Position numbers and translations under genes: made by a program. Shown piece by piece: positions 3,139 through 58,660 of a DNA stretch of 64,000 nt. The notes under the pieces are model-generated. The model saw only the letters and a list, made by a program, of their open reading frames with translations, was not told the DNA's origin and made no database searches. Numbering within the stretch: the first letter of the stretch is position 1; each line of letters opens with the position of its first letter. The DNA is from Octopus vulgaris (lineage: Eukaryota): assembly GCA_951406725.2 (NCBI GenBank), contig OX597836.1:45756001-45820000 (forward strand), in the 5' to 3' direction.

Positions 3139-3470
3139 AAATACAATAAGAGGCTTCCAAATAGGAAAGCCTTGTGCTAGAAAGAGCAGTAGAAAACTCA
3201 AACCACCAAATAAGGATAAATTCCCGAAAGGAATGAAAATTAAAAACGTTTACCATCTCAGTTATTTCCCAGGCCATGGTGTCTAACTATTTCCAGCAAA
3301 ACAATATTCGCTGGTGGTCTGAGTTTTCTACTGCTCTTTCTAGCACAAGGCTTTCCTATTTGGAAGCCTCTTATTGTATTTTTATGTGAATAATATATAG
3401 TCTAATGACTAATTCGTTTTTGTGCTAAGCCACTGGTAATAATAATTTCTTATTACCATATTGTTATTTA
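3139..3470. mobile_element. (TA)n-flanked fold-back cassette, probable PLE terminal fragment
   Basis: Inverted arms 3139-3208 / 3312-3381. Related sequence lies at 22070-22290 and 57310-57405. No clear ribozyme core. Confidence 0.55.
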
Positions 3471-3649
3471 TATATATATATATATATATATATATATATA
3501 TATATATATATATATATATATATATATATATATATATATATATATATAATATTAATTAGAGACAAAACCACTATTTTGCAAATCAAACAAAGAAAGACTT
3601 AATCCAATACATAAAAATTTTTAATATAAATTAAATAAAAATATATTCG

Positions 3650-3695
3650 CCACTACAATTGTTTCATGTCTCTTCTCAGGACATTCATCAGGTGG
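3650..3695 (-). ncRNA. Type I minimal hammerhead ribozyme (inverted copy)
   Basis: Reverse complement of 3739-3784. Confidence 0.86.
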
Positions 3696-3738
3696 ATTTC
3701 AGATCTTCTACTTTAAAATAAAATAGAAGATCTGAAAT

Positions 3739-3784
3739 CCACCTGATGAATGTCCTGAGAAGAGACATGAAACAATTGTAGTGG
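3739..3784 (+). ncRNA. Type I minimal hammerhead ribozyme
   Basis: ccac-CTGATGA-atgtc-ctgagaaga-gacat-GAAA-caattg-TA-gtgg. All core bases are present, stems I and II pair, stem III is palindromic, and the cleavage triplet is GUA. Confidence 0.88.
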
Positions 3785-4016
3785 CGAATATATTTTTATT
3801 TAATTTATATTAAAATTTTTTTATGTATTGGATTAAGTCTTTCTTTGTTTGATTTGCAAAATAGTGGTTTTGTCTCTAATTAATATTATATAATATTTTA
3901 CTATAAAATTGGATTCAATCCTAAATCTGATTTTCCCTGTAAATTTGGATTTATTCCCTAATATTTATTATTATATATATATATATATATATATATATAT
4001 ATATATATATATATAT

Positions 4017-4530
4017 ACATTTAGATGAACTGCGGTAGGAATAAAAGTAATAAAAGTCATTATTGTGAAATTATTAGAGATTCAAAAGCATACCGGTTTC
4101 GTGAATTTACTAATCATTGATTTGAATGCACATCGTTTAATGAACGGTGTCAGATCTACTAGTAAAACGATTACGTGTAAGGGAGGTAAGTAGTTCTGTA
4201 TTTGGTGCAATTAGGGTAGATATAGATCTGTAATGTGAATGGTGTATGGGATGTATGGGGTGAGTGGTATTAATTGAAATGTTTGTAGTGTTCTGTATTA
4301 TGCTATGTGTTCATATTGAGTTGTGGAAGATATTTATTGATGAAAGTTGCCTCTTTATTCATTCTTTGTTGTACTGAGGTGCTCTGTGAACATGTGTCTC
4401 GGAAAATCTTATCTATGCCATTACATCTTATCTAGGAAATTCCCGAAACCGGTATGCTTTTGAATCTCTTTAACAATTCACAATAATGACTTTTATTACT
4501 CTTATTCCTACCTCAGTTCAACTAATTGTA
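4017..4530 (-). mobile_element. 5'-truncated Penelope-like element with inverted pLTR and GIY-YIG C-terminal remnant
   Basis: Inverted arms 4017-4108 / 4438-4530 contain GAAA-ccgg-TA-tgc. Minus strand 4410-4303 reads ...QQRMNKEATFINKYLPQLNMNT*, which fits the GIY-YIG C-terminal R..E..I...P.LN pattern. Confidence 0.72.
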
Positions 4531-55720: not shown

Positions 55721-56946
55721 ACTTCGTATCCACTGGTTTCGCTGAGTTTGCCGAGGTTAGATGTGACCATTTTTTAGTCAATGAAGAGTGGTAGAATAAC
55801 AAAGAGTCACTTACAAAGCACTACAGCAGCTTAAAAGTTAGAAAAGCCGGAATACTGTACTCCTACTCCTGAGATATCGGGTTAAAGAACGTTTCAAAAT
55901 ATTTCCAAAAACTGGTGGTATTTGTTGATAAATAGAAATCACATTTAGCAGCTAATTGATGCAATGTTTAAATATAGAGATGTCACGAGAAATCTTGCAA
56001 CATCACGAAATAAACCGCAACCTAAAACATGCTTATTGTTTGAATTGTGAGACGAGAGTATAGGAGAGCGGAGTCACAGCGAGAGTCATTATCTCCCGTT
56101 ATTATAAGATAGTTTTAAGAGATAGAGAGGAAGGATGAGGGTAGGATTTAAAAGAGACAATAGCAGAAAGCATTCATGTATCGTCAATAGAAAGATTTTA
56201 TTGATATCTTATGATTAATATATTAAGTTATGAATTAGTGCCTAGCAACCTTTGACACTGCTCGTCATTTCGCCGTAATGAAAGCGGAAATATTGTGAAC
56301 TTAGGAGATCTTCGTCTTCGACAGGTTCACGTTAAATGGATTTTACTCAAAGATGCATCTCATGATGTATTAATTAATACATGAATATTTACACACACAC
56401 ACACACACACGCACACACACACAGATGCACGCACGCAAGGGTGCGCATATACATATGTAAGTGCACCTCACATAGTAAACATGTAAGTATATGCATATAT
56501 GTCTATGTGTATATATATATGTGTATGTGTGTTTATATATATATATATATGTATATATATATATGTATATTTGTATGTATGTATATATGTATATATATAT
56601 ATATATATATATATATATATATATATATATATATATATATATATATATATGTATATATATATATATATATACATATATGTATATATATATATATATATAT
56701 ATATATATATATATATATATATATATATATATACATACATACATATGTATAGGCGCAGAATGGCTGCATGGCAAGAAGCTTTATTTCCAACCACATTGTT
56801 CCGGATTCAGTCCCGTTGCGCGGCACCTTAGAAAAATGTCTTCAACTGAAAGATGCCCATCGTATATATATATATATATATATATATATATATATATATA
56901 TATATATATACGTTTATATATATATGTGTAAAACATATATATATGT

Positions 56947-57282
56947 GAAGGCGCATGGCTCAGTTGTTAGAGCGTCGAGCTTAGAATCGTGAGGTTGTGA
57001 GCTCGAATCCCGGACTGGGCTGCGTGTTGTGTTCTTGAGCAAAACACTTTATTTCACGTTGCTCCAGTTCACTCAGCTGTAGAAATGAGTTGCGACGTCA
57101 CTGGTGCCAAGCTGTATCGACCTTTGTCTTTCCCTTGGATAACACTGGTGGCGTGGAGAGGGGAGGCTGGTATGCATGGGCGACTGCTGGTCTTCCATAA
57201 ACAACCTTGCCCGGACTTGTGTCTAGGAGGGTAACTTTCTAGGTGCAATCCCATGGTCATTCATGACCGAAGGGGGTCTTTA
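56947..57282 (+). mobile_element. tRNA-derived SINE, family D
   Basis: tggctcagttgttagagc A-box and gagctcgaatccc B-box. The body is shared with 63815-64000(-). Confidence 0.8.
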
Positions 57283-57455
57283 TATATATACGTTAAATAT
57301 AGAGTAGTGAGGTTTTTTTTAGAAATTTCACTTCCAGTGGCCTAGCATGTATAAATAGTCAATAGACAACATATTCTCAATATAAAATAGTGTACATTTA
57401 AACACAATATATATATAAATAGAGTTAAACGTAGGTATTATTCAAGTCTTTATAC

Positions 57456-57541
57456 TTCCGACATATGTTTCGAAGAAAACATTGATATTATTCCAGAAGG
57501 TATAAAATGATGAACAACAATGCAATCTTCTCATCAGGGAA
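57456..57541 (-). ncRNA. Type I hammerhead ribozyme
   Basis: ttcc-CTGATGA-gaaga...tcttc-GAAA-catatg-TC-ggaa. Perfect core, GUC triplet, palindromic stem III. Confidence 0.87.
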
Positions 57542-58144
57542 AAAAGAGAAGCAAAATGCATCAATAAGACATTTTAACCGAATGTGATTACTGCATATAT
57601 GATGAAGGAAACGATGGTCTACATTTAGACATATCAATAAACGCAACAATACTGGGCTTAGTAAATTAATTTGGTCTCTAAATGAATATAATAAACAATT
57701 TCATTTGGAATGGAATATTCTATCTAGGTGTTTTCCTTATGATAAAGTGAGATATTTTTGTTCTCTCTGTAACGATGAACTACATTTCATCCTGTTCTCA
57801 GAGAATCCTCTTGTGAACACGTTGAAATAACGCGTTTATCGTTGCAAACATTGGCAAAAACATACCTAATTTCTACTAGTCGAAGTCTATAGAATTCGAC
57901 CTTTATCTGTCTTCTTACATTTAATTTCCATTAAATATATTTATTTCCCCGCCTTTGATCTGTATTTCTATTCACCTATCGCACTATATTTCTCCATTCT
58001 TAGTTTTTTCTCCTAATTTCTCTCTTCCTCCTTCTCTTTCTATAAATTGCCTTTGACGTTATTTCTATTAACGGTTCTCTTCATCATATATGCAGCATCA
58101 CATCCAATTAAAATATCTTATTGATGCGTTTTGTTTCTCTTTCT

Positions 58145-58231
58145 TTCCCTGATGAGAAGATTGTATCGTTTTACATCGTTAAAATTCCTTCTGGAATAAA
58201 ATCAATGTTTTCTTCGAAACATGTGTCGGAA
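58145..58231 (+). ncRNA. Type I hammerhead ribozyme
   Basis: ttcc-CTGATGA-gaaga...tcttc-GAAA-catgtg-TC-ggaa. Confidence 0.85.
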
Positions 58232-58660
58232 GAATAAAGACTTGAATGACACCTGTGTTTAACTCCATTTATTTATTTATTTATTTATGTGACATAAAAG
58301 CATTTCACTAAACTCAGGAAATTCTACCTTTATAAGTAGGCTGTTACATCCTTGGTATTTATGTGAATTTTTGCTACCCTGGTAATTATTTATTTATTTA
58401 TTTTTTTCGGTGTTATTTGTACACATTGAAAAATACACATACATTTATATGTGTGTGTGTGTGTTTGTCTCCGTACCATCGCTTAACAACTGATGGCAAT
58501 GTGTTTACGTTCCCGTAACGTAGTGGTTCGGCAAAAGCTACTGGTAGAATAAGTACTAGGGTAGATTTCTGCGATTAAATCCCTTTAAGGCGATGCTCCT
58601 GCATGGCCGCAGTCAAATGACTGAAACATGCTAAAGAGTAAAAGAATATGTATATATATA

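Follow-up and report, generated by a model that had tools for sequence, protein, structure and literature searches.

The question raised by this locus is what kind of genetic element has scattered hammerhead ribozyme motifs through it, whether the motifs are genuine, and how so many of them came to lie in inverted pairs. The window analysed is a 64,000-nt stretch of the Octopus vulgaris genome (assembly GCA_951406725.2, contig OX597836.1, positions 45,756,001-45,820,000, forward strand), for which a sequence-only reading had proposed a dense family of hammerhead fold-back cassettes in (TA)n microsatellites, either Penelope-like or retrozyme-like.

Intact canonical cores with all three stems were found four times in the window, at 3691 (-), 3743 (+), 57537 (-) and 58149 (+), vs. 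none across 30 shuffled versions of it and a mean of 0.125 over 40, and a relaxed scan (one core mismatch allowed, score of at least 15) gave 9 matches where 12 shuffles averaged 0.25. A 600-kb spread sample of the genome contained 29 intact motifs compared to 1-3 in shuffles, so that the predicted excess over shuffled sequence is borne out at both scales. Extrapolation from this sample gives about 126,000 intact motifs genome-wide (81,000-185,000), in round terms some 100,000. With about 3 intact motifs expected from the genome sample the window is ordinary, its one intact core every 16 kb comparing with one every 22 kb in the spread sample; the figure of one per 5 kb put forward earlier is reached only when decayed and half copies are counted. 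Stem III, which had been described as usually a short palindrome, is indeed palindromic in 19 of 25 sampled motifs and in none of 8 controls (p 2e-4), palindromy not being a requirement of the scan; a short palindrome here would permit pairing into a double hammerhead. Stem pairing was found to be re-formed with unrelated sequence across 38 clusters, and all four Watson-Crick pairs occur at core positions 3 and 8. The preference for (TA)n stood in part, with (TA)n near 16 of the 29 sampled motifs vs. 18.5% of random positions and none within 250 nt of the other 13.

That such motifs arose by chance in DNA rich in AT and repeats might be argued from the background of relaxed descriptors, which amounts to 8-12 per 600 kb (score of at least 15, one mismatch), and from sites 35844, 8588 and 26620, which are probably or possibly of this kind. 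Nevertheless, the more than tenfold excess of intact motifs over shuffles and the palindromy of stem III leave this explanation with almost no credibility, and for the cited sites it is refuted, every one of them having a multi-copy family with a conserved layout. Sites 35753/35844, 8588/8807, 43297 and 7660-7760 were rejected as chance-like or lacking a supporting family, and site 26620 has a single weak relative. An Rfam scan returned no hammerhead among the best 150 of 311 matches in the window, these 150 all lying under gathering scores and being mostly miRNA models on microsatellites. Folding of six motifs as monomers gave unremarkable z-scores, no better than shuffles, which lends no support but is expected of dimer-type motifs. 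The first strict descriptor missed variants because it included neither an extra base after A9 nor non-C3/G8 pairs, and it was later widened.

Altogether, about 20 hammerhead-derived stretches were counted in the window, belonging to 15 families unrelated to one another. They are given here with a dot in place of the strand where none was assigned.

3140..3468 (.), family K fold-back with a (TA)n run on either side and only a decayed 3' hammerhead half left at 3244-3328 (-)
3549..3971 (.), head-to-head insertion of family A (Hydra-like Penelope-like element, PLE) with (TA)n on either side, intact type I hammerheads (cores 3691-3685 (-) and 3743-3749 (+)), a spliced exon junction at 3729/3730 and a one-sided tail at about 3890-3971
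4018..4575 (.), family D inverted insertion, A3-U8 core at 4117-4111 (-) with one stem I mismatch; its + arm retains the 3' half of the hammerhead only (GAAA 4445-4448, cited site 4451)
7851..7927 (+), family J hammerhead whose stem I is disturbed in the window copy
8480..8898 (.), family C inverted pLTR pair with decayed hammerheads at 8597-8670 (-) and 8736-8798 (+), the latter (cited site 8765) having a stem II deletion
9727..9764 (+), remnant of a decayed hammerhead belonging to a U3-A8 family
11508..11585 (+), family M hammerhead, G12 mutated to A
11870..11956 (+), decayed relative of family I; further such relatives at 26345-26406 (-) and 29853-29918 (-)
16393..16514 (+), family F hammerhead, core 16405-16411, long stem II and stem mismatches, followed by (TA)n
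19092..19240 (-), short family E copy, core 19216-19210, of a G3-C8 family with C8 changed in the window copy
19566..19682 (+), family R rewired hammerhead-like motif, non-circularly permuted and core-opened
19785..19956 (-), family S short fold-back, 2-nt insertion in the hammerhead core of the window copy
20011..20592 (.), family G insertion whose 3' arms are inverted; its hammerhead at 20186-20278 (-) is near-intact, core at 20266, U17
24521..24595 (-), family H hammerhead represented by a decayed 3' half
25602..25699 (+), old copy of the family H hammerhead, GAAA mutated to GAGA, family word cagctg
26858..26905 (+), family I minimal hammerhead-like motif, core 26870-26876, U at position 6
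57290..58440 (.), family B inverted insertion with intact hammerheads 57537 (-) and 58149 (+) and, between them at 57618-57851 (+), part of the C-terminus of a Hydra-type endonuclease
59845..59945 (-), family V rewired hammerhead-like motif, R-like in layout and unrelated in sequence

The stem III words reported earlier are present at 11 of 11 cited positions, after GAAA (or GAGA) and on one strand. Judging by their genomic relatives the cited sites are hammerhead-derived as claimed, whereas an intact type I core is confined to the four motifs named above and most cited sites are variant or decayed. At the level of families, the type I order with core boxes and stems I, II and III was found for C-K and S; for family K, the intact core was seen in relatives at loci L345 and L349. 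Long inverted arms, which had been considered frequent, are present in families A, B, C, D, G and K, and short ones in S, but not in F, H, I, J or M. Sites additional to those first cited are 3244-3328 (-), 7851 (+), 9727 (+), 11520 (+), 11870 (+), about 19830 (-), 24521-24595 (-), 26345-26406 (-), 29853-29918 (-), 19566 (+) and 59845 (-).

The suggested link to PLE coding sequence holds for families A-E. Longer copies carry upstream coding sequence for reverse transcriptase (RT) and GIY-YIG in families C and D (in D at 6 of 13 loci) and for GIY-YIG in family E (an ORF in one long copy), while A and B are linked to Hydra-type ORF sequence. The genome contains 6,136 GIY-YIG candidates as well as many 781-aa open frames. 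For the ten other families (F, G, H, I, J, K, M, S, R and V) no ORF link was found, in the case of R and V within the loci examined, and these could be non-autonomous elements. An ORF beside a family G copy (locus L350) was discarded as G's own on account of its resemblance to the family C protein, leaving G unlinked, and one beside family K (locus L349) belongs to the 781-aa family and is probably a separate insertion.

The family A ORF, recovered without its N-terminus, translates into a CxCx5C linker and CxxC and CxH motifs beside conserved E and N, with no CCHH. Since a Pfam search of the ORF pieces found neither RT nor GIY-YIG, assignment rests on these motifs and one unnamed homologue, by which family A looks like a member of the Hydra clade. 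With Hydra-clade EN+ PLEs (Craig et al. 2021, PMC8557442, in excerpt) it shares the linker, the CxxC/CxH motifs and the absence of CCHH, as well as a canonical hammerhead, (TA)n insertion, an inverted 5'-truncated copy and a tail; the supplement of that study, as far as excerpted, lists Hydra-1_Obim with a (TA)n preference. Family A differs from the excerpted description in its long 3' region, in two splice donors and one acceptor beside the hammerhead, and in abundant spliced genomic copies.

The cassettes are thus very probably short, mostly 5'-truncated and often head-to-head terminal-repeat copies of many unrelated PLE families, bearing hammerheads that likely cut slowly as dimers, and likely target-primed into AT-rich DNA, often (TA)n. 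One alternative, which we regard as improbable, is that some or most families are non-autonomous and retrozyme-like, spreading via short or circular RNAs and borrowing PLE enzymes. It would account for the extreme abundance of families I and E, mostly as short copies (15,703 and 6,147 exact matches), for the one fixed place at which copies of E and S start and for the ten families in which no ORF was found. Non-LTR retrozymes (PMC7229834 and bioRxiv 10.64898/2026.07.22.740005, both in excerpt) resemble the cassettes in their type I hammerheads, mostly non-coding nature and pLTR-related repeats, but are head-to-tail tandems of about 300-bp monomers, whereas the cassettes in the window are solo or inverted head-to-head and never consist of hammerhead monomers repeated head to tail. 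In addition, copies span the cleavage site uncut, the families tested end at PLE-type tail positions, and a long copy of family E, otherwise the most plausible short element, contains a GIY-YIG ORF; the retrozyme-like half of the earlier proposal is not supported for these cassettes.

The system to which the copies are here ascribed, that of PLEs, is already known in kind (PMC4209133; PMC8557442, in excerpt), and the window is mostly a dense example of it. Known PLE hammerheads (PMC4209133) likewise have a CUGANGA and GAAA core, a palindromic stem III, an extra base after A9, frequent U17, a U3-A8 variant, heterogeneous families, mostly solo copies and opposite-strand pairs 100-700 bp apart. 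Diversity and fold-back pairs, which with density were singled out earlier as the notable part, are not new, as diverse motifs, opposite-strand pairs and thousands of copies per genome appear in that study; the scale differs, with about 100,000 intact motifs here compared to 2,000-9,000 per genome there. Our literature search found no paper linking hammerheads to an octopus count. Lunse et al. reportedly arrived in 2016 at about 150,000 hammerheads in total, which may include an octopus share and some of the core variants. Less known are family-level core variants, spliced copies of family A and two unrelated rewired hammerheads (19566 and 59845).

The origin of the inverted form was followed in family A, using 22 insertions selected through a sequence word lying downstream. 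All 22 end at (TA)n, which hides any target-site duplication, and 13 are inverted, the two arms of one insertion sharing private substitutions. The inversion point varies between 35 and 291 nt, the 5' half of the hammerhead is kept in only 8 insertions (in both arms in only 3), and the tail of the inverted insertions is found at one end in 12 and partly at both in 1. Family E likewise exhibits 5' truncation, an adjacent inverted copy and a one-sided tail. The near-perfect arms, and the similar geometry of many A and E copies, could suggest that the fold-back cassette is itself the mobile unit, a MITE-like DNA element or a double ribozyme. However, there are no fixed terminal inverted repeats or internal structure, ends and inversion point differ from copy to copy, the motif is often cut or lost, the tail is one-ended, and a fixed 5' end of the RNA accounts for the resemblance in geometry. 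The paired motifs also lie on opposite strands, so that any transcript has one sense copy, and the transcript of the family A cassette in the window is predicted to form a single long hairpin (-253 kcal/mol) burying the motif. This idea is largely refuted and has very little left to recommend it; the fold-backs, once thought to be a shared layout, are 5'-truncated inversions, random in nature and tailed on one side, a by-product of insertion.

In family A, a 1,135-nt GT-AG intron stops 9 nt short of stem I, and most of the copies that extend as far as this intron lack it. The spliced junction was found in 58 of 60 matches, vs. 28 intron-keeping acceptors, the junction pattern used for the search itself forcing 23 of the matched bases. 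Among 29 spliced matches examined, several of which are two arms of one insertion, 28 stop 24-35 nt above the junction, whereas 12 unspliced matches keep from 50 to over 1,500 nt above it. Three further copies join a second upstream donor to the same acceptor. The sharp boundary is likely to be the transcription start site, and, going by sequence, the many copies with a spliced junction were likely copied from the start of the spliced message, which points to sense, spliced RNA as the template. By eye, both loop variants of family A occur in spliced and unspliced forms. In family E, a possible cap-derived extra G precedes the start in the copies examined, which is noted as a lead.

A comparable arrangement of start site and initiator, short first exon and intron ending beside the hammerhead is found in the Drosophila Penelope leader (PMC4209133; PMC2377424, in excerpt). 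Anolis Poseidon (PMC11167929, in excerpt) resembles the present elements in its AT-rich targets and in having two start sites for RT, from which an optional tail results, and its hammerhead is dispensable for insertion in vitro. The excerpts of PMC2377424 and PMC11167929 stress intron retention in genomic copies, in contrast to family A, in which spliced copies are the majority of those reaching the junction. By analogy with PMC11167929 (in excerpt), the RT of the element may use one or the other of two priming sites lying 100-200 nt downstream from the hammerhead, which would give rise to the tail. On promoter-started, spliced RNA the enzyme would run off the 5' end after about 200-300 nt, leaving short, spliced copies delimited by the start site, and coding copies would be made only from long read-through, unspliced RNA, so that full elements would keep the intron. 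The inverted arm may be made by second-end synthesis on the same template, and most genomic copies would be dead. Why PLEs keep introns and which strand is copied are stated as unresolved in PMC8557442 and PMC3846280 (both in excerpt), the latter leaving open an antisense vs. an unspliced sense template; with dozens of precisely intron-free genomic copies and a sharp 5' boundary, family A makes this question directly testable.

Departures from the canonical core occur at the level of whole families. Family E has a G3-C8 core (the 6,147 exact matches given above), family D an A3-U8 core at family level, and family I, with at least 15,703 copies, a U6 with free N7 (CUGUNGA) in place of the canonical A6, U6 being present in 96 of the first 100 of 15,703 matches and all other hammerhead features being kept. 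Family-level G3-C8, A3-U8 and U6 cores were not found in the literature searched, and all three would widen the natural catalytic core while being missed by standard descriptors. Should all variants cleave, the genome would amount to a collection of working PLE hammerheads mutagenized by nature. The fuller proposition, that the G3-C8, A3-U8 and U6 cores and the R and V motifs all cleave, that the spliced copies prove reverse transcription of sense RNA and that the intron is kept only because spliced RNA yields dead short copies, seems to us evenly balanced between true and false.

In families R and V, whose sequences are unrelated to each other, the order is cleavage-site strand, GAAA, CUGANGA. 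In Type-SGC hammerheads, stem II is formed by the strand after CUGANGA pairing with the strand before GAAA. These hammerheads (Eckert et al. 2023, PMC10085705, in excerpt) share with R and V the order cleavage site, GAAA, CUGANGA; in R and V, unlike Type-SGC, the 5' strand of stem II is found upstream of the cleavage site, with the chain opening via an extra helix after A9, a topology not found in the excerpted text of that paper. Covariation in family R was no better than in shuffles, and its stems show 94% pairing vs. at most 43% when slid. The presence of two unrelated rewired motifs in one window provides independent support for the R/V topology. The window copy of family V is missing 14 nt, including most of one stem II strand.

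The window contains about 20 hammerhead-derived stretches, the majority of them decayed, variant or reduced to one half, that belong to 15 unrelated repeat families, as follows from motif scans combined with genome searches that found a multi-copy family behind every window site tested. The stem-III words on which the sequence-only reading based its dense family of hammerheads are present at 11 of 11 cited positions, but only four motifs are intact in a strict type I scan: 3691 (-), 3743 (+), 57537 (-) and 58149 (+). The same scan of 30 block-wise dinucleotide shuffles of the window gave 0 motifs. 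Because passages of PMC4209133 report an additional base following A9, as well as a U3-A8 core, in hammerheads carried by Penelope-like elements (PLEs), the descriptor was widened. It yielded 9 window matches vs. a mean of 0.25 in 12 shuffles (1 core mismatch permitted, score at least 15) and 4 vs. 0.125 in 40 shuffles (0 mismatches, palindromy uncredited). Relatives of families C, F, I, J, M and S are present among loci already fetched; candidates for the others are listed here.

First-look genome candidates per hammerhead family (lower bounds, distinct from copy numbers)
Family A, 3549-3971: at least 1,376
Family B, 57290-58440: at least 3,589
Family D, 4018-4575: at least 2,066
Family E, 19092-19240: at least 1,303
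Family R, 19566-19682: at least 486
Family V, 59845-59945 (-): at least 1,894
Family G: at least 903
Family H: at least 63
Family K: at least 1,887

The window is typical of the genome (2.8 Gb in 227 contigs, with DNA rich in SINEs and microsatellites), since its four intact motifs approach the 3 expected from a sample of sixty 10-kb stretches at round coordinates on 26 contigs (600 kb). This sample holds 29 intact motifs vs. 3, 2, 2, 2 and 1 in five shuffles; extrapolated at 1 per 22 kb, this comes to about 126,000 in the whole genome (Poisson range 81,000-185,000) with a descriptor that misses U6 and rewired forms. Stem III is a perfect palindrome in 19 of the 25 sample motifs with at least 4 bases vs. 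0 of 8 control matches, (TA)5 lies within 250 nt downstream of 16/29 (vs. 18.5% of random positions), and an inverted copy lies upstream of 8/29. The pooled fetched loci, a set biased by the choice of queries, contain 153 distinct intact motifs in 38 clusters. A further repeat family, flanked by (TA)n runs and also represented in the sample by relatives, occurs at 16593-16758, where no hammerhead was assigned, and at 9690-9950.

The proposed affiliation with PLEs holds, coding sequence being tied to families A, B, C, D and E. Genome-wide there are 6,136 GIY-YIG candidates, many within 781-aa open frames, and 148 of the 150 scored pass. Cassette C shows 77-84% identity to the repeat following an RT + GIY-YIG ORF in 4 of 20 fetched loci, family D has PLE coding sequence upstream in 6 of 13 loci, one long copy of family E carries a C-terminal GIY-YIG (E 2.6e-5), and cassette B itself includes a fragment of a Hydra-type endonuclease at 57618-57851 (E 3e-8). 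Two long copies of family A (L296, L297) contain ORF pieces, those of L297 in two frames. An RT or GIY-YIG match to these pieces was sought in Pfam and none was found, and both match one 672-aa homologue (37% and 39%). They show YRDD, a CxCx5C linker, CxxC before a conserved E, CxH after a conserved N and no CCHH; the linker, CxxC, CxH and absence of CCHH match the marks of Hydra-clade PLEs given in section 11 of PMC8557442, the supplement of which includes a Hydra family from an octopus that prefers (TA)n. No ORF link was found for ten families of the window. A decayed Hydra-type PLE coding fragment lies at 53870-54544 (-), and no hammerhead was found in the 900 nt downstream. The 3' region of the young PLE family with the 781-aa frame (L011, L014) carries a hammerhead of the U3-A8 type that has U17, together with a TGACGTC-type repeat run.

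The origin of the fold-back form was examined in 22 family A insertions, represented by 30 of the 251 exact matches to a word that lies downstream of hammerhead A, taken in coordinate order from the first. All 22 terminate at (TA)n, at either of two points separated by about 85 nt. An inverted arm is present in 13, of which 12 have a one-sided tail; the inversion distance ranges from 35 to 291 nt among the 10 measured, and private substitutions are common to both arms of a single insertion. The 5' half of the hammerhead is retained in 8/22, in both arms in 3, and for the transcript of 3549-3890 the predicted fold is a single hairpin (-253 kcal/mol) with the hammerhead buried. This is the inverted, 5'-truncated, tailed form described for PLEs in parts of PMC8557442, explained in passages of PMC11167929 by two RT start sites. 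The varying inversion, one-sided tail, matching PLE structure and burial of the motif in the predicted hairpin thus identify the fold-back as an insertion scar. A designed cassette fails to account for the variable inversion point, frequent loss of the motif and one-sided tail, and the retrozyme reading does not hold for the window cassettes.

The class, its inversions, (TA)n bias and diversity are already published; spliced run-off copies, family-level core variants and rewired motifs go beyond this. A long family A copy (L219) has a short upstream exon followed by a 1,135-nt GT-AG intron, the acceptor of which lies 9 nt ahead of stem I, and in window cassette A the exons are joined at 3729|3730. 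A pattern fitting both outcomes gave 60 matches, of which 58 are joined, one more is joined but carries a base change, and one is a donor; the intron-keeping acceptor gave 28. Among the first 30 pattern matches 29 are joined, five pairs being arms of one insertion; 28 of the 29 end 24-35 nt above the junction, 23 nt of which the pattern itself forces, and one reaches 160 nt. The first 12 intron-keeping matches, including L219, retain 50 to over 1,500 nt upstream. In 3 copies the same acceptor has been joined to a second donor, located 2,674 nt upstream, and in 4 copies this donor is unjoined, apart from a tandem array of 92 matches. That array, of a 38-bp unit with the upstream donor, is situated at the 5' terminus of a long copy (G000:C1:206238669-206243218; L298, L299).

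Joined copies have their 5' boundary at TCACT, which we take to be initiator-like. The label is drawn from passages of PMC3846280, which leave an antisense template possible. The leader has the same anatomy as that of Penelope (PMC2377424, in part), and intron retention in PLEs is termed unexplained in section 15 of PMC8557442. Spliced sense RNA primed close to its 5' end would give rise to short dead copies, and coding copies would require unspliced read-through RNA. Our literature search found no published spliced genomic PLE copies. Copies of families E and S also begin at one fixed place just above stem I. In a long copy (L356:3550-3600) the family E start falls at a sequence made up of branch point, pyrimidine tract and CAG, and in many short copies G replaces C before the start, which may reflect either a tiny spliced exon or a cap-derived base.

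Twenty aligned copies of family R share a core-opened, non-circularly permuted hammerhead layout in which N7 varies. In 12/20 copies, 94% of the cells in the four helices are paired vs. at most 43% when slid; covariation in these copies was not above shuffles. In family V these helices recur with unrelated sequence (11 relatives), and the 600-kb sample contains 7 matches to the layout vs. 1-3 in shuffles, three of the seven from a third family. The helices are rebuilt with different sequence from family to family. An ORF link was sought for families R and V, and none was found.

Core variants occur at family level: G3-C8 in family E (95 of the first 100 of 6,147 matches), A3-U8 in family D (54/58) and, in the sample, U3-A8 families. 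In family I, 96 of the first 100 of 15,703 matches carry U at position 6, whereas position 7, counted by eye, is U in 41, A in 25, C in 19 and G in 11; a free N7 next to a fixed core would be the pattern left by selection on the hammerhead fold. Natural U3-A8 and a slow A6C are reported in parts of PMC3088659, and a literature search extending to sources other than Lunse et al. 2016 found no natural G3-C8, A3-U8 or A6U hammerheads.

Other elements were also seen in the window.
44694-45740 (+): open frame of 348 aa that matches zf-RVT (E 5e-4) and bears a restriction-like endonuclease signature at its C-terminus, presumably a Dong/R4-type non-LTR element
16766-18467: Tc1-type transposon, its transposase fragment (17298-17993) flanked by inverted repeats of about 200 bp
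32876-34269 and 61850-62984: Helitron-like fragments of a PIF1 helicase and a Tx1-like non-LTR ORF represented by its 3' part, with more complete relatives in neighbouring stretches (L230, L231)
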